A stretch of DNA of 64,000 bases, from assembly GCA_963666055.2 (NCBI GenBank), contig CAXWPH010000002.1, forward strand, positions 32,001 to 96,000, given 5' to 3'. The notes beneath the pieces are model-generated. The model saw nothing but the letters and a program-made list of their open reading frames with translations. It was not told where the DNA came from and did not search any database. The DNA is from Acidobacteriota bacterium (GTDB lineage: Bacteria > Acidobacteriota > UBA890 > WLXD01). Positions 22,101 to 59,613 of this stretch are shown one piece after another. The number at the start of each line of letters is the position of its first letter. The first letter of the stretch is position 1. Made by a program: the position numbers and the translations under genes.

Positions 22101-22769
22101 GTGATCCGGGCTGCCGTCTTCGATCTGGATGGCCTGTTGATCGACTCCGAGCCCTTCTGGCAGCAAGCCGAGGCCGAGGGCTTTGGCGCCGCCGGCCTGA
22201 GCCTGTCGCCAAGCGATCTGCGCCAGACGGTTGGCCGGCGTATCGACGAGGTGGTGGCCTATTGGCTCGAGCGGCGCCCGTGGGACGTCGAACGCCATCC
22301 TCCAGAGAGCGTGCAGGGCAGCATCGTCGAGCGCGTCATCGACCTCATCGAAACGCGTGGCGAGCCGATGCCTGGCGTGCTGTCGGCGGTGAGCCTCTTC
22401 GAAAGCCTCGATCTGCTTCTTGCCGTGGCCTCGTCGTCCTCCAGGCGCATTATCGAGGCCGTATTGGGCCGTTTACGAATGAATGATCGGTTCGCGGTAG
22501 TGCACTCGGCGGAGCTCGAGTCACGCGGCAAGCCCGACCCTGCCGTGTTCCTCACCGCGGCTCGCAAGCTCGGCGTCTCGCCAGGGGAGTGCGTGGCGCT
22601 GGAGGACTCGATAATAGGCCTGCGCGCCGCTCGCGCTGCCGGCATGCGCTGCATCATGGTGCCCGATCCACGCCTTCGCGATGATCCGGCGCTCGGACAA
22701 GCCGACCTGGTGCTCGATACGCTGGCCCAGCTCGACGCCGAAATGCTACGCCGCGCCGTCGACGTCTAG
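22101..22769 (+). CDS. HAD-family phosphatase (HxpB/YniC-like)
   Basis: AAVFDLDGLLIDSEP, VASSS, GKPDPAVFL, LEDS..G..AARAAGM; GTG start after GAGG. Confidence 0.88.
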   Translation: MIRAAVFDLDGLLIDSEPFWQQAEAEGFGAAGLSLSPSDLRQTVGRRIDEVVAYWLERRPWDVERHPPESVQGSIVERVIDLIETRGEPMPGVLSAVSLFESLDLLLAVASSSSRRIIEAVLGRLRMNDRFAVVHSAELESRGKPDPAVFLTAARKLGVSPGECVALEDSIIGLRAARAAGMRCIMVPDPRLRDDPALGQADLVLDTLAQLDAEMLRRAVDV

Positions 22770-23046
22770 CAGGCCGTGGTGGAAGTGTGGCGGGCCTGGC
22801 GACAGGGTCTTGCGAGGAGGAGGCAAGGAGAGAGGAGGAGGCGATGGCTACCCCATCGTTGACGAGGAACGACGCAGCATAGGCGCGCAACCCCCTATCG
22901 CCCGGAGGGTTACGGCGATTTGGGGTCATCTGCGACGTTGGCCCTTCTGGACGATGGCTGGAGCATTGCCGGCGTCAGGCCGCCTTCCATCTGACCCCAA
23001 CTCGCCGCAACCAGGCCCGCTACACTTCCACCACGGCCTGCTCTAG
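22766..23046. mobile_element. Palindromic MITE-like element E1 (271 bp, 22770-23040) at the CTAG stop of the HAD gene
   Basis: 30-bp TIR CAGGCCGTGGTGGAAGTGTGGCGGGCCTGG (29/30 match to the right end), flanked by CTAG and CTCTAG; inverted homolog at 30005-30283; no transposase. Confidence 0.85.
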
Positions 23047-23324
23047 CAGATCTTCAGCACCCCGCTGCCGGGTCGCGCTGCCGTCTGCGCTCGCTTCATT
23101 GATTCAACAGTCTGGCAACGGCAGGGAGGACGTGTCGACGCTACTTCCGCAAGGCCGATCACGGGATTGCGTCAGCTACTACTTCCGCGCCGCCACACGT
23201 ACTCGTATGATCGCCGGAGCGAGGGGGTGAGCATGCGCTTCGAGCTCCAGGCCGGTCGGTGGATACGACCTGTGCTCGAGGAGCCTGACCGGTTCGTCGA
23301 AGAGATCAGCCGGCGCGTTTCGTC

Positions 23325-25067
23325 GTGATCAGCCGCGGGCAGAGCAACAAGAAGACAGGTCGTGGCGGTGTGATCTCCCTACTGCTGCTCGCCCTGCCCT
23401 TCGCAGGCGCCGGGACGTTCGTCGGTTACCTGGCGGGTGCCAGCGTCTCGAGCTGGATCAGAGCGCAGTCGTGGGAGATGGTCCCGGCCCGCATCCTGAG
23501 CGCCAACCTCGAGGTGAGCCATGACAGCGACACCACGACGTATCGTGTCGAGGCCGTCTACGAATACGCCTATCGGGGGGAGCTGCACACCTCGGACGTC
23601 GTTCGCTTCGGCTTCGGATCTGACAACGTCGGCTCGTTCCATCAGGACAAGCACGCTGAGCTGCAGCCCTATGTGGGCTCGGATCGTCGATTCCGTTGCT
23701 TTGTCAACCCGGACGATCCGACCGAGGCCGTCCTCTATCGCGAGATGCGCTGGGGCATGCTCGGGCTCATGGTCATCTTCGCGCTGGTCTTCAGCCTGGT
23801 CGGCTACGGCCTCATGTTTGCGGCCGTCTACGGCAGTCGTCTTGTTGCGGTGGTCGACAAGCTCAAGAAGGGTAACCCGGCCGAGCCGTGGCGTTGGGAG
23901 CATGAATGGACCACCGGTCGCGTATCGTCGGGCGCCAAGGGGACCGTGATCGGTGCTGCCATCTTCGCGACTCTCTGGAACCTGATATCAGCGCCCGCTC
24001 TTTTCTTCGTTCCGACCGAAGTTGCCGACGGCAACCGTCTGGCATTGATCGCCCTCATCTTTCCTGTCATTGGTCTCCTGCTGGTGGGGTGGACGGTGCG
24101 GGCGTTCTTGCGTTGGCGCAAGTTCGGCAGCGCTACCTTCGAGCTGGCCACCAACCCGGGTGTGCTGGGCGGCTACCTCGAGGGGCTGATTCACACCAAC
24201 ATCCGCGGCAATTTGGATGAGGGCTTCGAAGTGACGTTGACCTGCACCCGCACGGTCAGCACCGGCAGCGGCGACAACCGCAGCACCCGCGACGATGTCC
24301 TGTGGCAGGACGCCGCCTTCGTGCGGCGCGGCGCCCTCGGTCTGGGGCCCGAGGGAATCACGGTTCCGGTGCGCTTCGCCATTCCCTTCGGCGCCGCTCC
24401 GGCCAGCGATCCCGGCGGCTACCAGCCGATCCACTGGACGCTGGCGGCCGAGGCCGAGATGACCGGGATGGACTTCGCCGCCGAGTTCAAGGTACCGGTA
24501 TTCAAGACCGACGACAGCGATCCCGATCTGGAGATCGAGTCGGCCGAGGCCGATCGAACGAGCCCACACGACTGGGCCGCCGAGCTCGCCGCGATGGGGA
24601 TCGAGGAGGTTACCGGGGCTGGCGGGCGTCGTTACGTCTTCCGACGCGCCCGGCACAAGGGAGTTGCCGCCGGCGTGACGGCTTTTACGGCGGTCTGGTG
24701 CGGCTTCATCTGGATGATGGTCTCGCTCGGAGCGCCGCTGGTGTTCCCGATCATGTTCGGCCTCTTCGCGGCGATCATGCTCTGGTTCCTGCTCGAACTG
24801 TGGGTCGCCGAGATCAGTGTCGAGGTTGGCAACGGAACACTCGCGTTCACCAAGCGGCTGCTCGGGCCCGGCCGCTCCAGGTCCTTCACGCGCGACCAGA
24901 TCACCGCCCTGCGACCCACCCCCGGCATGCAGGCCAACAACAAGCTCTACTACCGCATCGAGCTCGCGACGCGCACCGACGACGAGCACATCATCGCCAC
25001 TCAACTCGACAGCCAACGTCTCGCCCGCCGCCTGATCGGCGAGATGCAGGAGGCGCTCCGAGCTTGA
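23325..25067 (+). CDS. Multi-pass membrane protein with DUF3592-like domain
   Basis: TM helices, W..VPARILSA...YRVEAVYEY.Y.G..H and CFVNPDDPTEAVL pattern of DUF3592. Confidence 0.7.
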   Translation: MISRGQSNKKTGRGGVISLLLLALPFAGAGTFVGYLAGASVSSWIRAQSWEMVPARILSANLEVSHDSDTTTYRVEAVYEYAYRGELHTSDVVRFGFGSDNVGSFHQDKHAELQPYVGSDRRFRCFVNPDDPTEAVLYREMRWGMLGLMVIFALVFSLVGYGLMFAAVYGSRLVAVVDKLKKGNPAEPWRWEHEWTTGRVSSGAKGTVIGAAIFATLWNLISAPALFFVPTEVADGNRLALIALIFPVIGLLLVGWTVRAFLRWRKFGSATFELATNPGVLGGYLEGLIHTNIRGNLDEGFEVTLTCTRTVSTGSGDNRSTRDDVLWQDAAFVRRGALGLGPEGITVPVRFAIPFGAAPASDPGGYQPIHWTLAAEAEMTGMDFAAEFKVPVFKTDDSDPDLEIESAEADRTSPHDWAAELAAMGIEEVTGAGGRRYVFRRARHKGVAAGVTAFTAVWCGFIWMMVSLGAPLVFPIMFGLFAAIMLWFLLELWVAEISVEVGNGTLAFTKRLLGPGRSRSFTRDQITALRPTPGMQANNKLYYRIELATRTDDEHIIATQLDSQRLARRLIGEMQEALRA

Positions 25068-25080
25068 GCCGGAGCCTGCG

Positions 25081-26070
25081 TCAGCCGGCCGCCGCCTGGT
25101 AGGCGCTGGCGATCGCCGCCAGCGCCAGGATGTAGAAGAGGAACATGAGCCCGAGGAAGGTATTGGTCTTGCCGTCGGCGCCCTCGAACTCCTTCCAGAC
25201 GAAGATTCCCCACGCCGCCGCGACCATCGGCGCAGCCTGACCGATCGCGTACGCGATGGCTACGCCGACGAGGCTCGCGGAGACGAAGTTGAAGACCGCG
25301 CCGGTGCCCCATACGATGCCGCCCAGGAGCCCGAACGCATGGTTCGCCGGTGGCGCGGAAAAAAAGCCGGAGAAGTCGACGGGCGCACCCACGAGCGGGT
25401 TCTTCATGAAGTAGACGTTGAAGACGAAACTGCTCAGCAGCGCTGCCAGCGTGAAGAACACGGCGATGCTGTAGGGCGTCAGCGGATGCCCCGCGGTGAG
25501 CGCCCGGGTCACGAACGGGGCGAACAAGCCCATCAGCAGTCCGGAGATCACACACACCACCAGGCTTTTCCTCGACACCGCTTCGCTTGCCGACGACAGG
25601 CGCGCATAGGCCTTGCCGTCGAAGAACACGGCACCGAGCGCCAGGGCGACGCCGAGACCGAGAATCATTGGGTTCCCGACCGGCTGCAGCGCGTAGCTGA
25701 GCACGACGCCGACCACCAGCGCGATGCCGATGGCCACCGGCAGCGCGACGGCGAGGCCGGCCATCTCGATGCCGGCGACGAGGAGGAGGTTGGCGATGTT
25801 GAAGATCGTCCCGCCCAGCATGGCGTAGGCGATGTTGCTTGAGTCGGCGGACGCGACGTTCTCGAGAAAGCCCTCTCCGGCGCCACCCGTGGAGCCCAGC
25901 GTGAAGGCGTAGACGAGCGACGCGAGAAAGATGCCGAGGGCGAAGTCCCAGTAGTAGTGCTCGAACCGATAGTTCTTGGTGAGCTTGATCGTATTGGCCC
26001 ACGACCCCCAGCAGATGGTGCTCACGATCATCATCAGCATCGCCATACCGAACGTTTCCGCGACGAACAT
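25081..26070 (-). CDS. DMT-superfamily transporter (ureide permease / GRP sugar transporter-like)
   Basis: ICWGSWANT, RFEHYYWDF, GGTIFNIANLLL, AYAIGQAAPMVAAAWGIFVWKEF; AGGAGG RBS before ATG 26070. Confidence 0.8.
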   Translation of the reverse strand: MFVAETFGMAMLMMIVSTICWGSWANTIKLTKNYRFEHYYWDFALGIFLASLVYAFTLGSTGGAGEGFLENVASADSSNIAYAMLGGTIFNIANLLLVAGIEMAGLAVALPVAIGIALVVGVVLSYALQPVGNPMILGLGVALALGAVFFDGKAYARLSSASEAVSRKSLVVCVISGLLMGLFAPFVTRALTAGHPLTPYSIAVFFTLAALLSSFVFNVYFMKNPLVGAPVDFSGFFSAPPANHAFGLLGGIVWGTGAVFNFVSASLVGVAIAYAIGQAAPMVAAAWGIFVWKEFEGADGKTNTFLGLMFLFYILALAAIASAYQAAAG

Positions 26071-26404
26071 GTGCCCTCCTTCTACCAGGCTGCGGTCGCC
26101 GCTCACCGAGCGTCGACAGCGAGAATTGCGCGGAGTCTAGCCAACCTCGCCAACAGGCGCCATGTTGAGGGCCGCCACGCATGACGCAGTTGACGCCGGC
26201 GGGATAGGGCTGGGAGGGCGCGCTCCCGCCGGTACCCTGAGCAGATAAACTCGCCATTGCTTTGGCCACCGAGGTGCGGTGCTGCGAAACTCGAAGCTCG
26301 GCGCGCTTGTCGGCGTGACCGACCGGCGCCGCGACCCGAGAGCGATCGGTCGCGCGATCAACTTTCCGTCGTCGGCTAGGCGGCGACTCGAACCGAGGAC
26401 AATC

Positions 26405-29400
26405 ATGCGTAGGATCAGCCCTCTCGTCACCATGGCAACCCTCCTCGCGTTGGCGATGCCCGCCGCCGGATCTGCCGGGCAGGCGTCGCCCGCCGGGGCG
26501 CAGCAATACCTGGCGCCGCCAGAGGAGCGCAGCACGGATCGCATCGTCCTGCCGCCCTGGTTGCACGGTGTGCCCGTCGACCCCATTACCGGCTACCCGT
26601 ACGGGTACGTGGTATTCGGCCAGGAAGACGAGGAAGGCGACGACGACGAAGAGTCGCAGGACGACTGGGACAAGAAGGACCTGCCACTCGAACCGACACG
26701 CACTGTGGCATTCACCGCCACGGAGGGCTCCTGGCTATCTCTGGACGGCAGCCCCGCCGGGTCGACGGTGCTCTTCGACTTGCTCGGTGACCTCTACACC
26801 GTTCCGATGACCGGCGGAGAGGCGGTGCGAGTCACCGAAGGGATGAGCTTCGACAGCATGCCGAGCTATAGCCCCGACGGCACCGAGGTGCTGTTCGTCT
26901 CGGATCGTAGCGGCTCGGAGAACCTGTGGGTGTTGAAGCTCGATGAGGACGACGAGGACGAGCGCTTTCGCCAGGTGACCAAGGACAAGAGCAGCAACTT
27001 CGCGTCGTCCGAATGGACTCCCGACGGGAAGTACATCGTTGCCGCCAAGGCGGGGGCGGGTGTTCGTGCCCAGAAACTCTTTCTGATCCACGCCGAGAAG
27101 GGCGGCGACGGTATCCAGATCGGAGAAGCGAGCAGCTCCATACGCCAGATGGGCCCCGCGTTCGGCGACGACGATCGTTGGATCTGGTTTGCCACGCGCA
27201 CCGGAGCCTGGCAGTACAACGCGATCTTTCCGCAGTACCAGCTCGCGGTCTACGACCGTCAGACCGGTGAGGTAAGCCAACGTAGCTCACGATATGGCTC
27301 AGCATTCCGGCCGACGCTCTCGCCAGACGGAAGGTGGCTGGCCTACGGAACCAGACACGAGGACCAGACCGGACTGCGGCTGCGAGATCTCGCCACCGGC
27401 GATGAAAGCTGGTTAGCGTATCCGGTGCAGCGCGACGACCAGGAGTCCGTCGCATCGCGCGACGTGCTTCCCGGAATGTCGTTCACGCCCGACTCCGCGG
27501 CGCTGGTGGCGTCGTATGGGGGCAAGATCTGGCGTATCCCGATCGATGGTTCCGCCGCGGTGGAGATTACGTTTACCGCCGAGGTGGAGCTCGAGGCGGG
27601 ACCGAAGCTCGACTTCGACTACCCGGTCGATGATCGTCCCGAGTTCGAGGTGCGCCAGATACGCGATGCGGTGCCCTCTCCCGATGGCCGCCAGCTCGCG
27701 TTCACCGCTCTCGACCGTCTCTACGTGATGGATTGGCCGGACGGTGAGCCGCGACGATTGACCGAGTCGGACAACGTCGAAGCCATGCCCGCCTGGTCAC
27801 CCGACGGCGCCACGCTGGCGTTCGTGACCTGGGACCAGACCGACGGAGGGCATATTTGGGCGATCTCCGCCGCTGGTGGTACGGCGCGCCGGCTGACGAG
27901 AATGAACGGCACCTACACGCAGGTGCCGTGGGCGCCGGACGGCGAGCGCATCGTCGCCGTCCGGGGACCGGCGCGTGACTATCAGGAGGCCACCGGTCCG
28001 TCCTTCGGCGGGGGTGCGAGGGCCGATCTGGTATGGATTCCGGCTGGCGGCGGTGACTGGACGCGAATCGCCTCAATGAGCGGCCGTACCGCTCCACACT
28101 TCGGTGCCGATGCCGATCGCGTCTATCTGTATGCGGGTCGCGCCGGCCTGGTCTCGCTTCGTTGGGACGGCACCGATCTGAAGGAGCATCTCAAGGTCAC
28201 CGGCCCGCCGATCCCGGGGGCGGAAGGGCCGCCGCCGCCTGCCAGATGGGTGAAGATCGCGCCCACCGGCGACAAGGCGCTGGCACGCGTTGGTATGGAC
28301 CTCTATGCCATCGAGGCCATTCCACTGGTTGGCGCCGAGGCGCCATCGATCTCGATGGCGAACATCTCCGACGCACCGGTTCCGGTGCGCAAGCTCACCG
28401 ATATCGGCGGCGAATTTCCGGCGTGGAGTGCCGACGGCAATACTGTGCACTGGTCGATCGGCAACGCCCATGTGACCTACGACCTCGAGGAAGCCGAGCG
28501 TGTCGACGAGGAGCTCGAGGCCGAGAAGAAGCGCAAGGCGAAAGAGGAGAAGGAGAAGGCCGCCGCTGAGAAGGAGGCCGGCGAAGAGGGCGCAGACGTT
28601 GCCGAGGGCGACGAAGACGAAGCCGGGGAGGATGACGACGGCGCTGGCGAGGACGACGAAGACGAGGGTTATGAGCCGTTCGAGAAGCGCGTCGTGGTCA
28701 TGGCGTCGCGAGATCTTTCAACCAGCACCGTAGTGCTACGGCGCGCGCGCGTCATCACCATGAACGGCGACGAGGTGATCGACAACGCCGATATCGTGAT
28801 CGAGGGCAACCGCATCAAGGCGGTCGGGCGGCGCGGCCGCGTGCAGATCCCGGATGGCGCCGAGCGCATCGATCTGCGCGGCAAGACCATCGTGCCGGGC
28901 TTCGTCGATACACATGCCCACATGTGGCCGAACTGGGGTCTGCACAAGCAACAGGTGTGGATGTACCTCGCTAACCTGGCGTACGGGGTGACCACCACAC
29001 GTGACCCGCAGACCGCCACCACCGATGTGCTGACATACTCCGACAAGGTCGAGACTGGAGAGCTCATTGGCCCGCGCGTGTACTCGACTGGGCCAGGGGT
29101 GTTCTCGGGCGAACGCTGGCGCGACGCCGACCACGCCCGCGACGTGCTCAAGCGTTACTCCGAGTATTACCAGACCAACACCATCAAGATGTACATGTCG
29201 GGCAGCCGCCAGACCCGGCAGTGGATCATCAATGCTGCCCGTGAGCAGGAGCTCATGCCGACGACCGAAGGTGGGCTCGACCTCGAGTACAACCTGACGA
29301 TGGCGATCGACGGGTACCCGGGGCAGGAGCACTCGCTGCCGATCTATCCTCTGTACGAGGACGTCGTGCAGCTGTTCGCGCAAACCGGGATCACATACTC

Positions 29401-30008
29401 GCCAACCCTGATCGTTAGCTACGGTGGGCCGTTTGGCGAGAACTACTTTTACACTAACGAGAATCCGTACAACGATCCAAAGATCCAGCGCTTCTATCCC
29501 TATTCGGTATTGGCGTCCAAAGCGCGACGGCGAGGTACCGGGGGTGGCGGGAGCCCGGGCCCGGGCGGCTGGTTCATGGACGAGGAATACGCCTTCGAGG
29601 GCCACGCTGAGGTGCTCAGGCGCATCGTCGAGGCCGGTGGTCGTGGCGGTGTCGGCAGCCATGGCCAGTTCGACGGCCTCGGATACCACTGGGAGCTGTG
29701 GATGATCGCCTCTGGCGGTATGTCGAACCACGACGCGCTTCGGGTGGCGACGATCCACGGCGCGGAGGGTATCGGCGTTGAGAACGACCTGGGCTCGATC
29801 GAGCCGGGAAAGATCGCCGACCTGATCGTGCTCGATGCCGATCCGTTGCAGAACATTCGCAACACGAGCCGCATCCACCGGGTGATGAAGGACGGCCGCT
29901 TGTACGGACGGCGCCACCCTCGCCGAGATCTACCCGCGCCAGCGGGAGGTGCAAGGGATGTACTGGTCGGATAGCTATAGTCCCTCTTCGCCTGCGGGGA
30001 TACGCTAG
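26405..30008 (+). CDS. Large secreted amidohydrolase with TolB/PD40 repeats; +1 frameshift at about 29906 in the last ~35 codons
   Basis: Repeated P..SPDG motifs, PGFVDTHAH metal site, GSIEPGKIADL; removing one G at 29906 gives RLYDGATLAEIYPRQR... ending at TAG 30006-30008. Confidence 0.85.
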
Positions 30009-30283
30009 CAGGCCGTGGTGAAAGTGTGGTGGGTCTGGTTACGGCGAGTTGGGGCCGGATACAAGGCGGCCTGACACAGGCGATGCCCTAGCCATCGTCG
30101 AAGAAGGCCAACGCTGCAGATGGCCCCAAAATCGCGCAACCCTTCGGGCGACAGGGGGTTGCGCGCGTATGCTGCGTCGTTCCTCGTCAACGATGGGGTA
30201 ACCATCGCCTTCTCCTCTCTCCTTGCCTCCACTTCGCAAGACCCTGTCGCCAGACCCACCACACTTTCACCACGGCCTGCTAG
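30005..30283. mobile_element. Palindromic MITE-like element E2 (271 bp, 30009-30279), inverted relative to E1
   Basis: Perfect 30-bp TIR CAGGCCGTGGTGAAAGTGTGGTGGGTCTGG with CTAG on both sides; roughly 85-90% identical to E1 by manual alignment. Confidence 0.88.
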
Positions 30284-30551
30284 GAAGCCGCCAGAGTTTT
30301 CCGGTCGTTCGGCGGTGGCGACGCCTCCTCCAGCGCGACTCTTGGGTGAGCCAGGCCCAAACTCCGTAGATGATCTGGATGAGCAAGAACGGGTAGAAGG
30401 CGGCGAAGAACGCGAATTTCCCCAGCGTCCCGCAGAAGATCTTCAGGACGGGACTCACCAGAGGGTGGGTGGGCTCTTCCGGCTGGCGCACCAGCAGCCA
30501 CTCCAGCAAGCCCACAGAAATCAAGAATAGACCGATCCCGCCGACTGCCAA
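30267..30551 (-). CDS. Small hypothetical membrane protein (3' end runs into E2)
   Basis: Two hydrophobic segments and a basic tail; no recognised family. Confidence 0.4.
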   Translation of the reverse strand: MAVGGIGLFLISVGLLEWLLVRQPEEPTHPLVSPVLKIFCGTLGKFAFFAAFYPFLLIQIIYGVWAWLTQESRWRRRRHRRTTGKLWRLPSRPW

Positions 30552-30609
30552 ATATCGGGTTCTCGGAGGTAACGTGACTCCCTGAAACTCGTCCTTGCTT
30601 CACTTGTCG

Positions 30610-30643
30610 TTGACACTAGGCGCCTGATAGCTCAAGCTATCAG
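30610..30643 (+). promoter_or_regulatory. Putative TA promoter and operator
   Basis: TTGACA at 30610-30615; perfect inverted repeat CTGATAGCT-CA-AGCTATCAG (30624-30643) over the expected -10 position. Confidence 0.6.
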
Positions 30644-30664
30644 TGAACAGAGAGGAGAGGCGCC

Positions 30665-30904
30665 ATGGCCACGGCGACCGTACGAATACCGGCGGAAAAG
30701 CGAGACATCCTGAGGATCATCGCCAGCATCGAGAAGACCGAGATGAAGGAGATCCTCTCCGAGCTCATCGACGAGTACATCGAGCGGCACCAGGAAACGC
30801 TGGACCTTCTCTCGAAGCCGGGGTGGGTCGACATCATCACTCGCGGCAAGCGAGAAGTGGAGACCGGCGTCAAGGGAAAGTCTCTCGATGAGCTGGCGGA
30901 TTGA
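30665..30904 (+). CDS. Type II antitoxin (RHH-like N-terminus, RelB/YefM-like tail)
   Basis: 79 aa, TATVRIP beta strand then helices, ETLDLLS.P...I.RG..E tail; overlaps the downstream toxin. Confidence 0.75.
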   Translation: MATATVRIPAEKRDILRIIASIEKTEMKEILSELIDEYIERHQETLDLLSKPGWVDIITRGKREVETGVKGKSLDELAD

Positions 30905-31154
30905 GATCAAGCCATCCGCCGAAAAGCAGTACCTCAGGCTGGACGCGGTCACTCGTCGGCGGATCAAGGAAACACTGCGCGATCTCGAAGACACCGAGAA
31001 GCCACTGCAACACCCGCGCGTACGACCCCTGACCGGGAAGCTGAAGGGGGACTGGAGAGTGAGGGTCGGGGGCTGGCGCCTTCTCATGACTCCCGATCGC
31101 GAGTCCGAAGTGCTCTACATCTACGCCATTCTTCCCCGCGGCGACGCCTATTGA
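30888..31154 (+). CDS. Type II toxin, RelE/ParE family
   Basis: WRIEIKPSAEKQY.RLD...RRRI, PLTGKLKGDWRVRVGGWRL, ILPRGDAY. Confidence 0.88.
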   Translation: MSWRIEIKPSAEKQYLRLDAVTRRRIKETLRDLEDTEKPLQHPRVRPLTGKLKGDWRVRVGGWRLLMTPDRESEVLYIYAILPRGDAY

Positions 31155-31190
31155 TCTCCTGAGACACGATGGGCGCTGACCCATGAAACG

Positions 31191-31628: not shown

Positions 31629-31993
31629 GGGGCTCTGGATTCAGCGCCACAGTCAAGTTTTAGCGCTTGGCGAAGTCGATCATCCGCTCGATGGCCACGA
31701 GCGGGATTGACGCCCGTAGGCGGCTGGCGGCCGCCAGCTGGCCGTCGTCGAACCAGTCGGGGTTGAAGCGTGAACCGAAGGCAATGAGCCCAGCGAAGCG
31801 CTCGTGGTGCCTTTCGCTTAAGTGCGCGCCGGAGAAGTATGCCGAGCAGGAAACTCTCAATCACAGCTACATATTGTCATGAAAGCTGATAATGATTATT
31901 TAATTCTTTTTCAGATCAACTATTGACTTATCTATGGTCTATTGACTATTTCTAATCAAAAGAAACTACTAATAACGTTTACTACGATACAAG

Positions 31994-37829: not shown

Positions 37830-37854
37830 TTAGTGTCCTGAGTCAGGACATTAG
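37830..37854. repeat. Short palindrome TAGTGTCCTGA-G-TCAGGACATTA
   Basis: 11-bp arms with one mismatch, in the intergenic gap between convergent genes. Confidence 0.7.
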
Positions 37855-49928: not shown

Positions 49929-49969
49929 GGCGGATCGGCTGCTTCGGCCCCCTCGAGCAATCGGCGACT

Positions 49970-50003: not shown

Positions 50004-50010
50004 CACCGAC

Positions 50011-52131: not shown

Positions 52132-53444
52132 TGTTGATCTCCCCTGGGACGTGGCCTTCCGCTGTAGCGTTCGTACAGCCGGTCGTGCTTGTTGTCTCTG
52201 GGATCGACGGGCAGACCGGCGATCACGAGGTGTTCGATCTGGGTGGTGGTCTCGAGCGGGTCGCCATCGCTGATGAACAGGTTGGCGAGCTTGCCGACCT
52301 CGATGGTCCCCAGCCGGTCGTCGACGCCGAGGATCTCGGCCGGGCTGATGGTGATCGCACGTAGCGCATCGTGATGCGAGAGCCCGAACGGAACCGCCTG
52401 GGCGGCCTCGTACGGGAGCGTTCGCGCAGCCGACGCGTTGAACGTCGAGATAGCGAACCTCACCCCCGCCGAGTGCAATTTCGCCGGCGCGGTGAAGGGT
52501 GCGTCATAGGGGTCGTCGTCGTTCGTCGGCAGCGCTTGCGTCGGACCGAGAATCACCGCCACATTTTTTTCCGCAAGCATCTCTGCAACCTTCCAGGCTG
52601 CGCTCCCACCGGCGATGATGATCCGCACATTGTTGCGCTCGGCGAAATCAACCGCGTCGCCGATGCCGCGTTCGGTATCGACGTTGATCAGCATCGGCAT
52701 GTCGCCGCCGGTTACCCAGGCGAGCGCCTCGAGTTTCAGGCTGCGTCGCGTCGGGTCGTCGCCGACGTCGGCCTCGGCGTAGCGGCGCGCGTCGGCGAGC
52801 AGTGCCTCGAGATCGGCGATTGACTCGTCGTACAGCTCCTTCGCCTCCTGGTAGGTGCGGTTGATGCGTGTGCGGGTGGCGCGGTCGAAGCCACGTGTCT
52901 GGACGGTTGGCCATTGCACCGCCATGTACACGCCGCCCTCGATCAGCATCTCTTCAATCGTCCAGCCGTCCAGATGAATCAACGAGCCCTGCCCGGCGAT
53001 GCCCGGGCCTTGGGGAGCAGCGACGGCATGGGTGAGGCCATTCGAGCGGCTCACCGGCAGAATCTCGCTGGCGGGATGCACCGCCGTCGCTCCCCGTAGT
53101 TGCGGGTTGTTCTCGCCCAACTCGCGAAAGTCCGATGTAACCGCCACCGCGCCGATCTCCGTAAGCCCCAAGCGCGTTACCGCGTCGAAGAAGCCGGGAA
53201 ACACCTGCAGGCCGCTGGCGTCGATTACCGTAGCGCCCGAGGGGATGATGGTGTCGGGACCGCCGACCGCGGTGATATGGCCATTACGAATCACTACTGT
53301 GCCGTTGTCGATGGCGCTCTCGTCCACCATCGTGTGGACGCGGCCGCCACGGATCACCAGGGCTTCTTGCTGTGCGGATGCCGCCGTGCCCACGAACACG
53401 AGGACGGCCGCGGCCAAAGCGGACCTCATTGCTCCCATCTTCAT
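52128..53444 (-). CDS. Amidohydrolase-family protein lacking the HxH motif
   Basis: Signal peptide, VFPGFFDAVT where HxH is expected, LGTIEVGKLANL. Confidence 0.8.
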   Translation of the reverse strand: MKMGAMRSALAAAVLVFVGTAASAQQEALVIRGGRVHTMVDESAIDNGTVVIRNGHITAVGGPDTIIPSGATVIDASGLQVFPGFFDAVTRLGLTEIGAVAVTSDFRELGENNPQLRGATAVHPASEILPVSRSNGLTHAVAAPQGPGIAGQGSLIHLDGWTIEEMLIEGGVYMAVQWPTVQTRGFDRATRTRINRTYQEAKELYDESIADLEALLADARRYAEADVGDDPTRRSLKLEALAWVTGGDMPMLINVDTERGIGDAVDFAERNNVRIIIAGGSAAWKVAEMLAEKNVAVILGPTQALPTNDDDPYDAPFTAPAKLHSAGVRFAISTFNASAARTLPYEAAQAVPFGLSHHDALRAITISPAEILGVDDRLGTIEVGKLANLFISDGDPLETTTQIEHLVIAGLPVDPRDNKHDRLYERYSGRPRPRGDQQ

Positions 53445-56176
53445 CGCTTCAACTCCTCCTGTGGGCTCGGGTCGCCGTCGTGCCGTGGCCGGGGCGCATT
53501 GGCCGGTCGCCCGTCCCCCTCCTCGTCGTCACTCGTGACCATCTGGCGCTCCAACAGCATCTCCTTTTCCTCGGCTAGCGCAGCGCGCATTTCCATGTCG
53601 TGCCGACGATCGAAGTACACTTGGCCGTCGACGATCGTCCGCTCTACGACCGCATAGTTGCTGAGCGGGTCGTTGCTGTAGATCACCAGGTCGGCGTCCT
53701 TGCCGACCTCGATCGAGCCGACGCGGTCATCGATGCCGAGCTGGATCGCCGGGTTGAGGGTCACCAGCCGTATGGCCTCGTCGCGGGTGTTGCCACCCCA
53801 TTTGATCGTCTTGGCGGCCTCCAGATTGAGATGCCGCATCTCCTCACCGGAGTCGGAGTTGATCGACACCACCACGCCGCGATCGGTCATCAGCGCGGCG
53901 TTGTGCGGAATCGCCTCGTAGGCCTCGACCTTGTAGCCCCACCAATCGGAGAATGTCGAGGCGCCGGCGCCGTGCTCGGCAATCTCGTCGGCCACCCGGT
54001 AGCCTTCCAGCACGTGCTGCAGGGTGGCGATGCGGAAGCCGAAATCCTCGGCGGTTCGTAGCAGCTGCAGGATCTCGTCGGCCCGGTACGAGTGGGCGTG
54101 TACCAGGCGCGTGCCCTCGAGGATCTCCACCAGCGGCTCCAGCTTGAGGTCACGGCGAGGCGGAATGATGCCCTCGTCGCCGGCGGCGAGCGCCTGTTCG
54201 TAGCGGCGCCCTTCGGCCTGGTATGCCTGAGCGTCGAGAAACGCCTGGCGGATGACATCCTGCACGCCCATGCGCGAATTGGGGTAGCGGTCCGGATCAC
54301 GGTCACGCTTGGTGTTCTCACCCAGCGCGAACTTGATGCCCTGCGGCGCGCCCTCGAACATCAACCCCTGCGCGTTGGCGCCCCAGCGCAGCTTCACCAC
54401 GGCGTTTTGGCCGCCGATCGGGTTGGCTGAGCCGTGCAGGATGTTGGCGGAGGTGACCCCGCCCGCCAGGGCCCGATAGATCGACACCTGGTCGGGGTTG
54501 AGCACGTCGCGGATGCCGACCATTGCCGAGACCGAGACGCTACCTTCGTTGATCGATTCGGCAGCGATGTGCGAGTGGGCGTCGACGATGCCGGGAATTA
54601 CCCACTTGCCGGTAGCGTCGATCACCTGGGCGCCGGCCGGCGCGTCGACGTTGGTGCCGATCGATGCGATGCGTCCATCGCGGATGAGCAGCGAAGCGTT
54701 CTCGAGGGTGCCGGCTGCGCTTACCGTCATTATGGTGGCGTTGCGCACCACAGTAACGGCGTGCTCGCTCACCGGGCCCCGGTCGCGCACCATCGGTACG
54801 GGTTCGTACGTCTCGACGTCGGCGTCATTCTCTCCGTCATCGCCGACCGAGTCGTCAACCGGGGCGCTGTCGAAGCGCTGACCATCGACGATGACCGTGC
54901 GGATGCGCGTGCCGGCGTCGAACAGATCGCCGTCGGCGAGCGCGATGTTGGCGATCTTGCCGACCTCGATGCTCCCCAGTCGGTCGTCGACGCCGAAGAT
55001 CTCGGCTGCGCCCAGGGTCAGGGCTCGTAGGGCAGCGGCTTCGGGCAGCCCGGCGCGTACCGCCAACCGAGCGTTGTCGAGCAACTCGTCCGGATCGCTC
55101 ATGTCCCCGGAGTAGAACGCGAAGCGCACTCCGGCGGCGTGAAGCGCCGCTGGCGCGGTCGGGGCGCGGTCACGATAGCGCAATACCTGAAGTGATTCCT
55201 CGGCGTTGGGATCGCCGTCGGGGTCACGCTCAGGCCAATCGAGGTTGATCAGCACCGCTACGTCGGCTGCCGCCAGCGTCTCTGTCACGGCCCAGGCCTG
55301 GCGGCCTCCGTAGAGGATCGGTCGCACGCCGACGGTGCGCGCGATGCGCAGTGCGCGCTCGATCTCGCGCGCCCAATCGGCAGGTAGCAGCACGGGCCAG
55401 TCATCACGCACCGCGGCTCGCAAGGGCTCCAGCGTACGGTCGTACTCGGGCCGCTCGGTGCCAACGGGCGAGGATTCGTAGATCGACCAGGCCTGCTCGT
55501 AGTGTTGGGCGTCGAGCAACAGCTGCTTCACGTAGGCGATGATGCCCATGATCGAGCCCGGGTAACCCTCGAATGCGCGACCTTTGTTGAAGCTCACCGG
55601 TAGCGCCACCGGCGTGGCCACGACCATGTCGTTGGGGCGTTCTCCGCTGAGGTCGATGATCGAGGCCTGCCCAGGGAACAGGCCACGCTCCGGTGCCGAC
55701 ACGACGGTGGTGAAGCCGGCAGCGCGCCACGCGGCGATCCGCGTGTCCTCGGTGTCCAGGTGATCCGCCGCACTGATCCAGGTGAACGTGGCAGGGCGGT
55801 CCTCCGGACCCCGGGCGTAGTCGTCGTTCGCGTCTTCCGCTCCGCCGCCGCTGCGGCTGTTGTCCGCCCGATCGCGCAGCTCCGCAGGCAGCCCGACGGT
55901 GGATAGCGCGTCGATGAGGCCGGGGTAGGCGGTCAAGCCCGAGCCGTCGATGCTCCAGGCACCCGCCGGTGCGGTGACTTCGGCGCCGACCGCGGCGATC
56001 AAGCCGTTCCGAACGACGATGGTGCCGCGGTCGACCACCGAGCCATCGCCCACCACGATGCGCACGTCCTTGATCGCGAAGTGGGGCGGCGGCGCTTGGG
56101 CGACTGCGCTGTGGGCGAGAGCGACAAAGCCGATGGTGAGGGTCACCGCCAGGCGCCGGGTGGGCCTGTTGAGCAT
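53441..56176 (-). CDS. Tandem two-domain amidohydrolase
   Basis: Domain 1 YPGLIDALST (no HxH); domain 2 PGIVDAHSH, LHGSANPIGG, KFALGEN, HSYRADE, INSDS. Confidence 0.85.
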   Translation of the reverse strand: MLNRPTRRLAVTLTIGFVALAHSAVAQAPPPHFAIKDVRIVVGDGSVVDRGTIVVRNGLIAAVGAEVTAPAGAWSIDGSGLTAYPGLIDALSTVGLPAELRDRADNSRSGGGAEDANDDYARGPEDRPATFTWISAADHLDTEDTRIAAWRAAGFTTVVSAPERGLFPGQASIIDLSGERPNDMVVATPVALPVSFNKGRAFEGYPGSIMGIIAYVKQLLLDAQHYEQAWSIYESSPVGTERPEYDRTLEPLRAAVRDDWPVLLPADWAREIERALRIARTVGVRPILYGGRQAWAVTETLAAADVAVLINLDWPERDPDGDPNAEESLQVLRYRDRAPTAPAALHAAGVRFAFYSGDMSDPDELLDNARLAVRAGLPEAAALRALTLGAAEIFGVDDRLGSIEVGKIANIALADGDLFDAGTRIRTVIVDGQRFDSAPVDDSVGDDGENDADVETYEPVPMVRDRGPVSEHAVTVVRNATIMTVSAAGTLENASLLIRDGRIASIGTNVDAPAGAQVIDATGKWVIPGIVDAHSHIAAESINEGSVSVSAMVGIRDVLNPDQVSIYRALAGGVTSANILHGSANPIGGQNAVVKLRWGANAQGLMFEGAPQGIKFALGENTKRDRDPDRYPNSRMGVQDVIRQAFLDAQAYQAEGRRYEQALAAGDEGIIPPRRDLKLEPLVEILEGTRLVHAHSYRADEILQLLRTAEDFGFRIATLQHVLEGYRVADEIAEHGAGASTFSDWWGYKVEAYEAIPHNAALMTDRGVVVSINSDSGEEMRHLNLEAAKTIKWGGNTRDEAIRLVTLNPAIQLGIDDRVGSIEVGKDADLVIYSNDPLSNYAVVERTIVDGQVYFDRRHDMEMRAALAEEKEMLLERQMVTSDDEEGDGRPANAPRPRHDGDPSPQEELKR

Positions 56177-56370
56177 GGAGGAGCTCCTGCGAGATGGGGG
56201 TCAGGAAAGGGCCCATAGACTATGTTGCAGGCCAACGGCGATCCACGGAGTACCGTGCCAGGTGTGCAAGTTCCTCGCCGTTGCGCGTCTCAGGCTCGAA
56301 GGCACGTCAAGGCGCCGCGGCGGCGGGACAGTGCGACACTAGGGGCCGTTGATCAACCAGCGAGGACACC

Positions 56371-57600
56371 GTGAAAACTTCCGAGGAACACCCGAACCGA
56401 ACCCGTAGGCATTGCGTCGCCGCCATCGGACTGATCCTTACCGTCGCCACAGCGGTCCCCGGTGTTGCCCAGGAGCGCGCCGCGACGAGCCTCACCATCT
56501 ACTCGCAGGGCCTGGCGCTGGTACGCGCCGAGCTCGACCGGCCGCTACCCGCCGGCACCCACGCCGTTCGCATCGACGGTCTGCCGACCAGCGTCGAGCA
56601 GGCCAGCCTCATCGTGCTCAACCCCGGTGCCGTCTTGCAGGGTGTGCGCGGGTACCGAACGTACGAGGGTGGCAGCGCCGTGGGCGCTTCGTTGGTAGTC
56701 GACATCGAGCTGTCGGAGCCGGTCCAGACGCTGCGCATCGCGTACCTGGCCCGGGGTATCGACTGGTCGGCTTCCTACACCATGCAGGTGGCTCCTGACC
56801 AGCGCTCGGCTCGCATTGATGGGTACGCCAGCATCAGCAACGGCTCGGGGGCCCGCTTTACCGACGCCGAGGTTCAGCTGTTGGCTGGCGACGTCAACGT
56901 CGCTTCGCCGCGGCGCCAGGCCTTTCGGGCAATGGAGGCCGTTGCCGTGGCGGCGGTTTCGGCCGCGCCGGAAGTGCAGGAGGAGGCGTTCGCCGGGTAC
57001 CACGTCTATACGGTCTCCGAGCCGCTGATGATCGAACCAGGGGAGTCGCGTCGCATCCGCCTGATGGGCGGCGATGCCATCGCGGTGGTGAAGGAGTACG
57101 TGTTGACCGGGGGCGTCAGCCCGCGCCAGCGACAGCCAGAACCGCAGCCAGTCGCTGTGGGTGTTCGCTACCGTGTCGGCAGGACGATCGAGACCGAGTT
57201 CGGTGTCGTCCCGCTGCCGGCCGGGACGGTGCGCATCTACAGCCCCGATCCCGGCGGCCGGCTGCAGTTGCTCGGTGTGTCCCGGATCGGCAATACCCCG
57301 GCCGGCCAAGAGCTCCTGCTGTCGGTGGGGCGCGCCTTCGACGTTACCGCGGTGCGATCGCAGACCGGATTCCGCCGCGTCGCCAACAACGAGCGCGAGT
57401 CCGACTGGAGCCTGAAGCTGAGCAACGTCTCCGCCCAGGAGGTCACCGTACAGGTCATCGAGCGCATCGTTGGTGACTGGCGAATTCTCAGCTCCAGCCA
57501 TGAACCGCAGATCATCTCGGCGGCGGCGGTCCGCTTCGACGTGACTGTGCCGGCCGGCGGGGAGGCGGAGCTGCTGTACAGCGTGTCCGTCCGCAGCTAG
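56371..57600 (+). CDS. DUF4139 domain secreted protein
   Basis: SLTIYSQGLALVR, YL..GIDWSASY, LLAGDVN, YHVY, PLPAG.VRIY. Confidence 0.8.
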   Translation: MKTSEEHPNRTRRHCVAAIGLILTVATAVPGVAQERAATSLTIYSQGLALVRAELDRPLPAGTHAVRIDGLPTSVEQASLIVLNPGAVLQGVRGYRTYEGGSAVGASLVVDIELSEPVQTLRIAYLARGIDWSASYTMQVAPDQRSARIDGYASISNGSGARFTDAEVQLLAGDVNVASPRRQAFRAMEAVAVAAVSAAPEVQEEAFAGYHVYTVSEPLMIEPGESRRIRLMGGDAIAVVKEYVLTGGVSPRQRQPEPQPVAVGVRYRVGRTIETEFGVVPLPAGTVRIYSPDPGGRLQLLGVSRIGNTPAGQELLLSVGRAFDVTAVRSQTGFRRVANNERESDWSLKLSNVSAQEVTVQVIERIVGDWRILSSSHEPQIISAAAVRFDVTVPAGGEAELLYSVSVRS

Positions 57601-57628
57601 CCGGTGTGATCACCGGTGCGACGCCGGG

Positions 57629-57662
57629 CCAGGCCCGCCACACTTTCACCGCGGTCTGCCAG
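57629..57662. repeat. Solo right-end TIR of the E1/E2 family
   Basis: CCAGGCCCGCCACACTTTCACCGCGGTCTG-CCAG compared with the E1 right end CCAGGCCCGCTACACTTCCACCACGGCCTG. Confidence 0.75.
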
Positions 57663-57674
57663 GACGACCCTCGC

Positions 57675-57702
57675 TTGACAGCAGGCGCCGGCACACGAGA
57701 AT
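57675..57702 (+). promoter_or_regulatory. Putative sigma70 promoter of the M20-M20-argF operon
   Basis: TTGACA-N16-GAGAAT about 80 nt upstream of a GGGAGG RBS and GTG start. Confidence 0.35.
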
Positions 57703-57779
57703 GATCGGGCGACGGCTCCCCCACTCCACTGCGGATCGTTGCCCGCCGTCTTGTACGCCCGCCTAAGCAGGGAGGTCCC

Positions 57780-59429
57780 GTGGATCCTGCATCCCGCTAT
57801 CGTCTAAAGCGCATCCTGGTCATGTTGTTGTTGGTCGCCTGCGCCCCTGCTCTCACCGGCGCGACCGCAGTAGCGCAGCGTCCGTCGGCCGAGGCGCTGA
57901 AGGAGCAGGTGCGCGAGATCGTCGGCTCTATGAAGAAGCAGTCGCAGGTCATTGTCGACTCGATCTTCTCGTTCGCCGAGCTCGGGTTTCAGGAACACGA
58001 GACGGTCAAGTTGGTCACCGGCCTGCTGCGCGACGAGGGCTTCGACATAGAAACAGGCTGTGCCGGTATGCCGACTTGCTACGTCGCCAGCTGGGGACAT
58101 GGCAAACCGGTGATCGGCCTCATGGGCGACATCGACGGGTTACCGGAGACTTCGCAGAAACCCGGTGTTGCGTACCATGACCCGCTGATCGAAGGCGGCC
58201 CCGGCCACGGCGAGGGACACAACAGCGCGGCTGCAGTGGACGTGGTGGCGGCGGTGGCCATCAAGCGGGTCATGGAGGCGCACGGCCTCGAGGGCACCAT
58301 CAAGGTGATTCCCGGGGTGGCCGAGGAGCTGGTGGCGTCGCGTACCTACATGGTGAACGACGGGCTGTTCGAGGGGATGGACGTGATGATCTCCCCACAT
58401 ATCGGCAGCACGCTCGCTGTCGGATACGGTGCCTGGGGCTCCGGCATGGTGTCGACGCAGTTCACCTTCCATGGCACCTCGGCGCACGGTGCCGGCTCTC
58501 CTTGGGCTGGGCGCAGCGCGCTCGACGCCGTCGAGCTGATGAATGTCGGCTGGAACTTCCGCCGCGAGCACCTGCGACTGCACCAGCGATCACACTACAT
58601 AATCCCGCATGGCGGCAACCAGCCGAACGTCGTGCCGTCAGAAGCGAGCGTTTGGTACTACTTCCGCGAGCTGGACTACGACCGCATCAAGGAGCTCCAC
58701 GAGCTCGGCAAGACCATGGCGGAAGCGGCGGCGATGATGATGACCGGCACCACGGTTACGGAGCGTGTGCTGGGCGTCGCGTGGCCACCCAACGACAGCA
58801 AGCCGCTGGCCGAGCTGATGCACGACAACATCCTGGAGGTCGGTCTGCCGAAGTGGTCAGAGGCCGACCAGAACCTGGCCCGAGCCGTGCAGCGAGAGCT
58901 GGGGGTACTCGGCGAGCGTGACTTCTTCGGCCAGCTCGCCGACGGATTGCCGACGGAGATCACAAGCGAAGAGGCGATTGCCTTCGAACAGGGAATGGGC
59001 GGCGGATCGGACGACATCGCCGAGGTGTCGTGGAACGTCCCGACCGTACGCCTGTGGTACCCGGGCAACATCCCCGGGGCCATTGCGCACCACTGGTCAT
59101 CCTCCATCTCCATGGCGACACCAATCGCCCACGAGGGCGCCAATTACGCGGCGCGGGTCATCGCCATGACGGTGATCGACTTGCTCACCGATCCCGCCAG
59201 GGTGGAAGAAGCTTGGGCCTATTTCCGCGAGGTCACCACCAAGGACTATCAGTGGAGGTCGCTCATTCCCGAGGGCACGCCGCCGCCTGTTCACATGAAC
59301 GCCGACAAGATGGCCCGGTATCGTCCGCAGCTTGAGGCGCTGCGCTACGACCCGACCCGGTTCGAAACCTACCTCGAACAGCTGGGAATCGAGTACCCCA
59401 CGGTCCGAGACCCCCAGCAAGAAGACTAG
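57780..59429 (+). CDS. Secreted M20 amidohydrolase (AbgB-like), paralog 1
   Basis: [38 protein letters not shown]. Confidence 0.85.
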   Translation: MDPASRYRLKRILVMLLLVACAPALTGATAVAQRPSAEALKEQVREIVGSMKKQSQVIVDSIFSFAELGFQEHETVKLVTGLLRDEGFDIETGCAGMPTCYVASWGHGKPVIGLMGDIDGLPETSQKPGVAYHDPLIEGGPGHGEGHNSAAAVDVVAAVAIKRVMEAHGLEGTIKVIPGVAEELVASRTYMVNDGLFEGMDVMISPHIGSTLAVGYGAWGSGMVSTQFTFHGTSAHGAGSPWAGRSALDAVELMNVGWNFRREHLRLHQRSHYIIPHGGNQPNVVPSEASVWYYFRELDYDRIKELHELGKTMAEAAAMMMTGTTVTERVLGVAWPPNDSKPLAELMHDNILEVGLPKWSEADQNLARAVQRELGVLGERDFFGQLADGLPTEITSEEAIAFEQGMGGGSDDIAEVSWNVPTVRLWYPGNIPGAIAHHWSSSISMATPIAHEGANYAARVIAMTVIDLLTDPARVEEAWAYFREVTTKDYQWRSLIPEGTPPPVHMNADKMARYRPQLEALRYDPTRFETYLEQLGIEYPTVRDPQQED

Positions 59430-59613
59430 TGGCCTGTAACAGATGATCGTTGCATATCGTGGTCGCCATCCTGCGGACAGATGGGCAGTTGCGGGCGATC
59501 TCGGCGTTGCGCCTCCTCGACGATGCCCATTGCATCGCCTTCCTCGCCGCGCCTTGATCTCACCCGCAAATCCCATCTGCGATGTGCAACGATCATCTGT
59601 TACAGGCCACTCG
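59426..59613. mobile_element. Palindromic element E3 at the CTAG stop of paralog 1
   Basis: 32-bp TIR AGTGGCCTGTAACAGATGATCGTTGCATATCG (31/32), internal stems CAGATGGG/CCCATCTG and TTGCGGG/CCCGCAA, same core motif as E1/E2. Confidence 0.82.

Follow-up and report, generated by a model that had tools for sequence, protein, structure and literature searches.

MITEs of a known kind in an Acidobacteriota genome carry an apparently undescribed, selected structural module

Results

The window, the whole stretch of 64,000 nucleotides analysed here from an Acidobacteriota bacterium (contig CAXWPH010000002.1), contains three repeat elements, E1, E2, and E3 (Table 1). E1 and E2 belong to one family (A) and lie in opposite orientations. 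The left TAG of E1 doubles as the stop codon for a gene encoding an HxpB-like phosphatase, and the right junction of E1 carries two additional bases. In arm 1 of E1, the loop reads AAGG-A/G-ACGC and a purine zipper replaces the middle stem. E3 lies within the TAG that terminates an amidohydrolase gene and has CTCG at its right junction. An earlier note on this DNA had described E3 as a separate one-arm design; it is instead a 276-bp two-arm family-C element minus 90 bases of one arm. The E3 site is empty in the 94%-identical relative G002, and the same CTAG holds an independent family-B remnant in G004.

Table 1. Probable MITEs in the window and their predicted folding arms.
Feature	Position	Strand	Description
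E1	22766..23046	.	probable family-A two-arm MITE with CTAG at either end; IS1182-like inverted ends of 33 bp
E1 arm 1	22796..22903	+	purine-rich folding strand on +; 56 bits
E1 arm 2	22907..23014	-	degenerate core; folding strand on -; 69.9 bits
E2	30005..30283	.	probable family-A two-arm MITE; 279 bases including both CTAG
E2 arm 2	30035..30142	+	folding strand on +; 82.7 bits
E2 arm 1	30146..30253	-	folding strand on -; 59.1 bits
E3	59426..59613	.	probable family-C MITE, IS630-type ends; one arm with 90-base internal deletion
E3 remaining arm	59475..59583	-	folding strand on -; 91.5 bits

The arms share a core, which the earlier note had picked out. Its first 37 bases (GCGTYG-N7-TCRACGATG-N7-CATCGCCT) match exactly at 22839-22875(-), 30078-30114(-), 30174-30210(+), and 59504-59540(+), with 0 matches expected from 100 shuffles. 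The fifth core, at 22935-22987, is degenerate as described there and was recovered by the covariance model. The spacers keep a constant length, as had been claimed, but their sequence is not free: they consist mostly of base-paired stems and the hairpin loop. The two-arm shape of E1 and the one-arm shape of E3 were confirmed, and both fold far better than shuffled sequences (as DNA, z -7.4 for E1 and -10.9 for E3). The repeat element also occurs in independent assemblies of public runs, at a summed depth far above that of its flanks, and is therefore no assembly artefact. The host genome contains 240 cores at 147 loci, falling into four end-families (A-D) of ~277 bp at CTAG sites.

The alignment of 44 arms showed covariation (score 0.54 vs 0.17 in shuffles, reached by 0/500 shuffles), and 89% of cells were paired vs 67% in shuffles; the arms are related, so that p-values overstate the case, and the search pattern itself accounts for part of the column invariance. 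At positions outside that pattern, the purine strand carries 66 G·T and 12 A·C pairs. One non-canonical pair switches between C·A (25 arms) and A·G (17 arms), with other combinations in 2, that is, in 42/44 arms after removal of a coding chance match (L072) and two copies with a deleted flank (L035 and L073). The GTAC-apex variant mentioned in the earlier note exists, although no tie to Nitrospira was established. In this independent, apex-only set, relaxing the pattern to AGG, with a separate shuffle control, recovered the loop in 22/46 elements (shuffle mean 2.1, maximum 7); strict AAGG in a narrow register gave 6/50. The same switch recurs there (C·A 11, A·G 8, other 3; 19/22). Furthermore, the distance from the element end to AAGG is 56-58 bases in 44/54 distinct elements, whatever the end sequence. 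The one-strand fold and the covariation support strand-specific structural selection on the core.

The core was found in at least five phyla. Viral contigs gave 0 matches to the CGATG core, and E2 had no match among plasmids. Of the eight matches to a first GTAC pattern there, seven were one coding chance match. Rfam returned nothing in the window at the gathering threshold; by E-value, weak miRNA, snoRNA, and lncRNA matches on four element loci were dismissed as chance.

We additionally observed single core copies that lack TA, lie directly behind tRNA genes, and are conserved as well as the neighbouring rplQ. Five occur at one tRNA-Ala site, and others stand behind tRNA-Asp, -Asn, -Ala, and -Thr genes. 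These hairpins of 163-166 bases have no TA or IS end and keep the end distance. Their identity is 0.69-0.84, and the DNA beyond them is at the background of 0.51-0.58. Since they keep the fold without IS ends, the core is maintained where transposition should not matter.

The ends of the families resemble those of three kinds of insertion sequence. The family A end equals the first 20 bases (20/20) of a four-copy, 1503-bp IS in G011 (L020), whose protein fits the IS1182 model best but scores 158 bits, below the NF033551 cut-off of 270. The family B end resembles that of an IS5 element (18/22), and the end of a related MITE does so at 21/22. Families D (19/23) and C (17/23) resemble the right end of the host IS630, by a count made by eye that gives an inexact, type-level match; an MITE end of a relative matches the same IS end at 22/22. 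The host genome holds one intact IS630 (NF033545, 282 bits), so that families C and D, including E3, combine IS630-like ends, a TA target within CTAG, and an IS630 in the same genome. For families A and B, tblastn recovered neither the IS1182-like nor the IS5 partner from the host assembly (95.7% complete), and no partner IS for family A was detected there. G004 contains 30 exact cores, yet no match to IS630 or DUF772. An eight-copy host IS5 (8 DUF772 matches) was rejected as a partner, having different ends, a TTAA/CTAA target, and no core within 2.5 kb. No autonomous element with A-D ends was detected among the unpaired ends of the host genome; these 220 end matches, with C and D counted twice, include many deleted and truncated copies.

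Type II MITEs are shorter than 500 bp, with terminal inverted repeats and no transposase gene (PMC10969869). In line with that description, the present elements typically measure 154-281 bp with inverted ends of ~33 bp, their likeness to ISs is confined to the ends (matching L017, L018, and L020), and the empty E3 site and TA-type flanks indicate target duplication. In family A, 90/114 elements have CTAG/CTAG flanks; mixed pairs such as TTAG/CTAG (four in family B) are consistent with duplication of TA but not of four bases. It is conceivable that only ISs with palindromic targets are used. TA is absent at both detected ends in 21/142 elements; most of these are TA types that have degenerated or whose boundaries were misplaced, and the remainder form the TA-less, mostly tRNA-linked class.

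Ends may be exchanged around the core. At L028, a two-arm element adjoins an IS630 end at a common TAG, and at 12 host-genome junctions different families lie back to back at one TA, some possibly counted twice, as C and D ends cross-match. End classes do not cluster on the arm tree (9 changes vs a shuffled mean of 10.3), which left out the 21/44 arms without a classed end and in which some labels are rough (L039 is probably of IS630 type).

Discussion

Judging from their ends and flanks, E1-E3 are very probably non-autonomous MITEs in CTAG sites, moved in trans by DDE transposases; the candidate movers would be the IS1182-like transposase for E1 and E2 and IS630 for E3. The modular system proposed in the earlier note, a constant structured core within unrelated ends, is upheld. 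Its contention that this is not an ordinary MITE is not supported: the ends resemble those of ordinary DDE elements from three IS families, and the flanks fit TA duplication. Ends might be swapped when an IS inserts at the common CTAG and the new end is copied to the other side via fold-back. For the core itself, we favour, at a probability of about 0.45, a putative structure-specific docking site on a folded single DNA strand. The folded form would be DNA (a cruciform or single strand at a fork), not RNA, and docking on it would aid mobilisation or survival of the element. Because three transposase families use the same core, the binder would be a conserved host protein and not a transposase.

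The same MITEs and transposases could instead carry a core selected as RNA, bound by a host RNA-binding protein or set for cleavage or termination, with insertions behind stops and tRNA genes being tolerable or useful. We consider this rather unlikely, although several observations suit it. Predicted stop codons are occupied by 69/136 elements, vs 551/2053 non-genic background CTAG sites, as judged from simple in-house gene calls. Family A is oriented by transcription, with arm 1 upstream in a ratio of 39:7 (27:2 if gene and GC skew concur, 8:4 if they conflict), and this orientation suggests an effect at the RNA level. The purine strand is the better-folding one in 41/46 arms when treated as RNA (by our own count) and in 35/46 when treated as DNA. 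Both DNA and RNA can form sheared G·A pairs and G·T wobbles, which therefore do not decide the molecule. The C·A/A·G/U·A set fits the trans Hoogsteen/sugar-edge family of RNA pairs. The conserved tRNA-linked copies can be read in the same way. RNase E and RNase III cleave the RNAs of both ERIC and Correia elements, and for ERIC the cleavage depends on orientation (PMC2229807). Against an RNA role, read-through strand bias is not significant in single-arm copies (14:8 in Bacillota; 10:14 in the host genome, where some of the copies counted are two-arm ones in which one core went undetected). Two-arm elements present a motif arm whichever way they lie, so the 39:7 ratio could stem from a harmful C/U-rich reverse of arm 1 and not from use of the core. 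Moreover, in all TA-less copies observed next to tRNA genes, read-through from the tRNA yields the strand without the motif, and the fixed distance to a DNA end would have no obvious use. Two other signals were discarded. A replication-strand bias of family A, 54:26 when judged from local GC skew and 19:12 where the adjacent genes converge or diverge, is weaker than, and confounded with, gene direction. An ATG-to-TAG frame, open in 53/70 family A copies, is absent from the other core types and has a high chance of arising at this GC content.

The trans-acting core mobiliser of the earlier note is retained as an improbable rival, in which a separate enzyme would bind the folded core, gauge a distance of ~57 bases, and mobilise the hairpin as a unit; the IS-like ends would be passengers or a second route. 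The end distance, kept under many end sequences and in the tRNA hairpins, speaks for such an enzyme, as does the absence of the best-matching A and B transposases from the host assembly. Of the two types of mobiliser then named, the IS5-like one fits family B. The HUH/RAYT one is not supported, with no Y1_Tnp match in 9/9 core-bearing genomes of this order (the host and eight relatives); RVT_1 is absent from the host genome and four more of the 10 searched, the other 5/10 having one. Among 87 transposase loci, four of which have a core nearby, no core lies inside an IS (57 IS630 or DUF772 loci) or forms a flank pair of a Y1 gene (30 Y1 loci of other core-bearing genomes). The end matches of up to 20/20 and 22/22 and the TA-type flanks also argue against a separate core mobiliser.

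Least probable of all, the core would have no function and be inherited from one old MITE. Template switching within quasi-palindromes copies one arm onto the other, producing apparent Watson-Crick covariation, and could keep stems paired without selection; the many deleted and truncated copies would agree with this. However, it would erase the mismatched loops, which persist across phyla, and it leaves unexplained both the excess of G·T over A·C and the switch between C·A and A·G. It also sits poorly with tRNA-linked copies whose identity exceeds that of the DNA beyond them.

Relation to Known Repeat Families

Correia elements share only the core with the present elements, and ERIC only the outer loop. 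In the literature searched, the shared core is undescribed; ISfinder and the primary ERIC and Correia papers lay beyond this coverage, so an earlier description is possible. The part of a 2026 preprint (10.64898/2026.09.15.751765) available to us mentions neither MITEs nor Correia elements.

One close counterpart is the short (~107-bp) Correia element of Neisseria (CREE/NEMIS), which aligns end to end with one 108-base arm and shares the AAGG/ACGC loop, the bulged second loop, the spacing to the tip, and TA flanks. A core-only covariance model detects short Correia elements (E 1e-7) and, weakly, ERIC. It found 8/10 Correia loci at E 1.6e-6 to 0.009, the two misses being long 155-bp forms; a whole N. 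gonorrhoeae record gave seven matches, of which the top four, inspected, are short Correia copies. Correia elements differ in their GTAC apex (not CGATG/CATCG), in a core 26 bases from the end (not 56-58), and in having one arm and AT-rich 26-bp ends. The 26-bp Neisseria inverted ends and lengths of 107 or 155 bp that define them are replaced here by other ends and sizes.

ERIC (IRU/RU-1) of Enterobacteriaceae, labelled MITEEc1_IS630 in ISfinder (quoted in PMC11602168), shows the AAGG-C/T ... A-ACGC loop in register in 5/12 E. coli K-12 copies, together with TA flanks and a long hairpin. Only 1/12 copies reached E <0.01, and 7/12 have a variant right strand; across the complete K-12 chromosome the model gave a single match (E 0.007), which on visual inspection is another ERIC-type copy. 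The tip of ERIC is longer and unrelated, its core lies ~27 bases from the end, and its 127-bp consensus with a central inverted repeat is not reproduced beyond the outer loop. According to a 2007 review, ERIC had by then yielded no motif beyond its inverted ends, and its mobilisation lacked experimental support (PMC2229807).

A 108-base streptococcal repeat that was retrieved with BOX/RUP motifs, presumably a BOX element, displays on visual inspection both AGG-A/G-ACGT and a GTAC apex; the covariance model scores 0/18 RUP/BOX loci at E<0.6, so the link is by eye alone. Streptococcal MITEs have been tied to ISs by their ends, RUP to IS630-Spn1 and BOX to ISSpn2, in the portion of PMC3049150 consulted. 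MITEPye1 of Paracoccus yeei, compared by description from part of PMC11578231, has IS1182-family-like ends and a long stem-loop but differs in its 4-bp direct repeats and its 1-3 copies. Like REP/REPIN sequences with RAYT, the present elements are abundant intergenic hairpins, often in inverted pairs; unlike them, they have long IS-type inverted ends and TA duplication, and the nine genomes searched have no Y1 HUH gene.

Together with Correia, ERIC, and probably BOX, hundreds of unnamed families from different phyla might, tentatively, form one ancient superfamily, though we regard this as doubtful. Its host-recognised folded module of fixed geometry would act via a folded single strand, outlive its transposases by capturing new IS ends, and sometimes be retained by the host in one copy following a tRNA gene. 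For more than 30 years it has been asked by what means ERIC and Correia elements spread and whether their interior has any role. The shared, covarying non-canonical loop at a fixed end distance offers exact mutations and a binding substrate for tests, and intact candidate transposases are at hand. The view that MITEs are hollowed-out ISs would also change: here the inside lasts, and the ends are replaceable.

Core-bearing elements in the window and its genome

Four of the cores claimed in the window (GCGTYG-N7-TCRACGATG...CCTTG, at hairpin tips) fit the first 37 bases of the pattern exactly, against a chance expectation of 0. The fifth, described as degenerate, is so, and still scores 69.9 bits with a covariance model built later from core-bearing arms (hairpins of ~108 bases, each capped by one core). 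The two-arm shape of repeats E1 and E2, which lie in opposite orientations, and the single arm of E3 were likewise as the earlier note described. Comparison with Rfam gave no family at its threshold. The E3 insertion site is vacant in one relative (G002; flank 94% identical), and in another (G004) the same CTAG carries a family-B remnant. We observed one surplus base at window position 29906, close to the 3' end of a 1231-aa propeller/amidohydrolase gene, relative to contigs from three public runs; an assembly error is the probable cause.

Core-bearing elements, end-families and other sequence features (G000, own genome; other G-numbers, other genomes; L-numbers, fetched loci; counts of families C and D cross-match)
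Feature	Position or loci	Description	Family
E1	22766-23046	two-arm hairpin	A
E2	30005-30283	two-arm hairpin	A
E3	59426-59613	one arm	C minus 90 bases
Family A		114 paired elements, including E1 and E2	A
Family B		9 elements	B
Family C		~12 elements, including E3	C
Family D		few elements	D
tRNA-linked core hairpins	L371-L375 (G011, G023, G022, G013, G020); L321, L361, L366, L369	one orientation always	
Short end remnant	23044-23070	adjoins right CTAG of E1 (by eye)	B
Solitary end	57635-57661, minus strand	degenerate	A
Palindrome	37831-37853	23 bases, two IS630 right-end halves	
Array of five left ends	G000:C11:160027-160400	83-base spacing, each beginning at the internal CTAG-like loop of arm 2	A
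tRNA-adjacent element	G000:C14:8322	at CTAG directly behind tRNA-Arg(CCT)	B

The own genome (5.73 Mb, 95.7% complete) contains 126 exact cores; a looser pattern gave 240 cores at 147 loci, 87 of which are inverted pairs, with a core-to-core distance of 96 bases in 78. The elements have MITE anatomy and form four end-families of near-uniform length (275-278 bp). Because family-A copies have a mean identity of 89%, with one identical pair among 77, there was no very recent burst; the closest named relatives of this family are Acidobacteriota records. The flanks are of TA type. CTAG stands on both sides of 90/114 family-A elements. Where the two sides differ, as in TTAG/CTAG, the flanks are consistent with duplication of TA, the end bases of the element then being G...C. 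According to simple gene calls, 69 of 136 elements occupy a predicted stop codon, compared with 27% of non-genic background CTAG sites.

The left-end array can be read as tandem self-insertion or amplification. Several more minimal palindromes of IS630 right-end halves occur in the own genome, often adjoining family A or C elements. In the family-A consensus, arm 1 carries a Shine-Dalgarno-like run and an ATG that opens a 66-codon frame closing at the terminal TAG; the frame is intact in 53/70 copies and may be due to chance.

Further copies of the core, sought in light of the earlier note, proved numerous in the own genome and were also found in other genomes and phyla. The exact pattern matched in 14 of 61 relatives, and the covariance model detected the core in 43 of 121 genomes of the phylum (own genome and G047 included). 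A species-genome scan returned at least 62 loci, one of them a coding chance match, with titles naming Acidobacteriota, Bacillota, Planctomycetota groups, Myxococcota and Gemmatimonadota.

Structure of the folded core

On the purine-rich strand, the consensus of 44 non-redundant arms begins with an outer stem, C-AAGG-X and a 5-bp stem, continues through a loop (one covarying pair, one bulged G) into GGCGATG-N7-CATCGTY, and ends with GA-N-GA, the 5-bp partner and R-ACGC-N-G. X and R change jointly (C·A 25, A·G 17), and this pair is independent of the search pattern. Isostericity is a known property of sheared base pairs. The stems covary and are paired at 89%, against 67% when shuffled and 32-52% in slid controls. 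The fold belongs to one strand: on the purine-rich strand, G·T is commoner than A·C (66:12) and G·A commoner than C·T (40:12). The arm statistics are inflated by relatedness, and the invariant columns reflect in part the search pattern.

In an independent metagenome set selected by the GTAC apex alone (n=46), the loop occurred in 22 (shuffles, mean 2.1 and maximum 7), with C·A in 11 and A·G in 8; a stricter count found it in 6/50 GTAC-apex elements. Metagenomes hold a very large GTAC-apex superfamily (L422-L501; at least 124 exact matches) with many scaffolds and loop variants.

The geometry is fixed, with 56-58 bases from the terminal TA to AAGG in 44/54 elements regardless of end sequence; in the remainder, the start was taken at an inner TA. 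Arms are shared among end classes, which are dispersed over an arm tree (9 changes against 10.3 when shuffled, equally low in 42/200), a weak tree with rough labels that uses 23/44 arms.

Element ends and proposed mechanism

Judged by sequence, the element ends are those of ordinary ISs from three families. The first 20 bases of a 1503-bp IS present in four copies in G011 are the family-A end; the best model for its protein is IS1182, with a score below the cut-off. Family-B-like ends occur on an IS5 element of the same genome (18/22). The own genome has one intact IS630, whose right end agrees with D in 19/23 bases and with C in 17/23; its agreement with the MITE end of a relative is 22/22. 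Counting against this reading, tblastn did not find the partner ISs of families A and B in the own assembly, and G004 has cores and no IS630 or DUF772 match. At locus L199 (G081), a decayed IS630 gene is flanked by two core-bearing MITEs and further remnants.

Matching DDE enzymes would transpose the elements. New ends may be captured at a common CTAG and then copied through fold-back. The core could be a docking site on a folded single DNA strand, whose two ends would pair into one transposon-end-like duplex. Since the core is common to three transposase families, its partner would probably be a host protein.

A close rival is that the core acts as RNA: the orientation of family A follows transcription (39:7), whereas single-arm copies lack a clear transcription orientation (14:8 and 10:14). 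That a mobiliser of another kind reads the core is less likely. For the HUH/RAYT type suggested in the earlier note, no Y1 HUH gene was found in the own genome or the 8 relatives searched; no reverse transcriptase was found in the own genome. Run on 57 IS630/DUF772 loci plus 30 Y1 loci, cmsearch found no IS with a core inside it. At four searched transposase loci, the nearby core belonged to separate MITEs, one adjoining an IS630 end at a common TAG. Pure neutrality of the core, under which template switching, a known process, would keep the stems paired, is unlikely.

tRNA-linked copies

Single-arm core hairpins of 163-166 bases, without TA or IS ends, lie a few bases from tRNA 3' ends. One stands behind tRNA-Ala(CGC), 3' of rplQ, in 5/10 genomes of family f2 and in 0/7 readable genomes of the own family; others follow tRNA-Asp, -Asn, -Ala and -Thr in two other genomes. 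Among the matches listed, G011, G013, G020 and G022 have one near-full-length match each. The five Ala copies show identities of 0.69-0.84, compared with 0.68-0.86 for rplQ and 0.51-0.58 for the DNA beyond, and their outer 30 bases have diverged in sequence with pairing kept. Predicted transcription gives the non-motif strand in all tRNA-linked copies. Two origins would fit this class: an old insertion that the host has retained, or a route that targets tRNA genes.

The family-B insertion behind tRNA-Arg(CCT) shows that the 3' end of a tRNA gene can serve as an ordinary target. We also observed tandem partial units behind tRNA-Asn and tRNA-Thr (G075), a similar hairpin behind a prfC-like gene (L351; gene name by eye), and, by eye, apparent integrase-led islands at the same tRNA-Ala(CGC) site (L376 in G012, L387 in G001).

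Comparison with known repeats

The elements are MITEs carrying a phylum-spanning structural module that is apparently undescribed. The available portions of PMC2229807, PMC10969869, PMC3184786, PMC3049150, PMC11578231, PMC11602168 and preprint 10.64898/2026.09.15.751765 contain no description of a core common to these repeats and those below; the literature searched, short of ISfinder and the primary papers on ERIC and Correia, gave no account of a shared core.

The covariance model, whose E-values are rough, was built without any ERIC or Correia sequence. It nevertheless aligned the short Correia element end to end (8/10 loci, E 1.6e-6 to 0.009), the missed loci being long forms; these loci were identified as Correia by a 92% match to records of N. 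gonorrhoeae and by the sizes given in PMC2229807. A whole N. gonorrhoeae record gave 7 matches; each of the top four is a short Correia copy (E 1e-7 to 7e-7). The likeness of ERIC is weaker, with the loop in register in 5 of 12 K-12 copies and E < 0.01 in 1; across the whole K-12 chromosome, the model's sole match (E 0.007) is a further copy of ERIC type. In a 108-base streptococcal repeat, the motif is visible by eye only, with no model match. The core of ERIC and Correia lies 26-27 bases from the end, ~30 fewer than in the elements described here.
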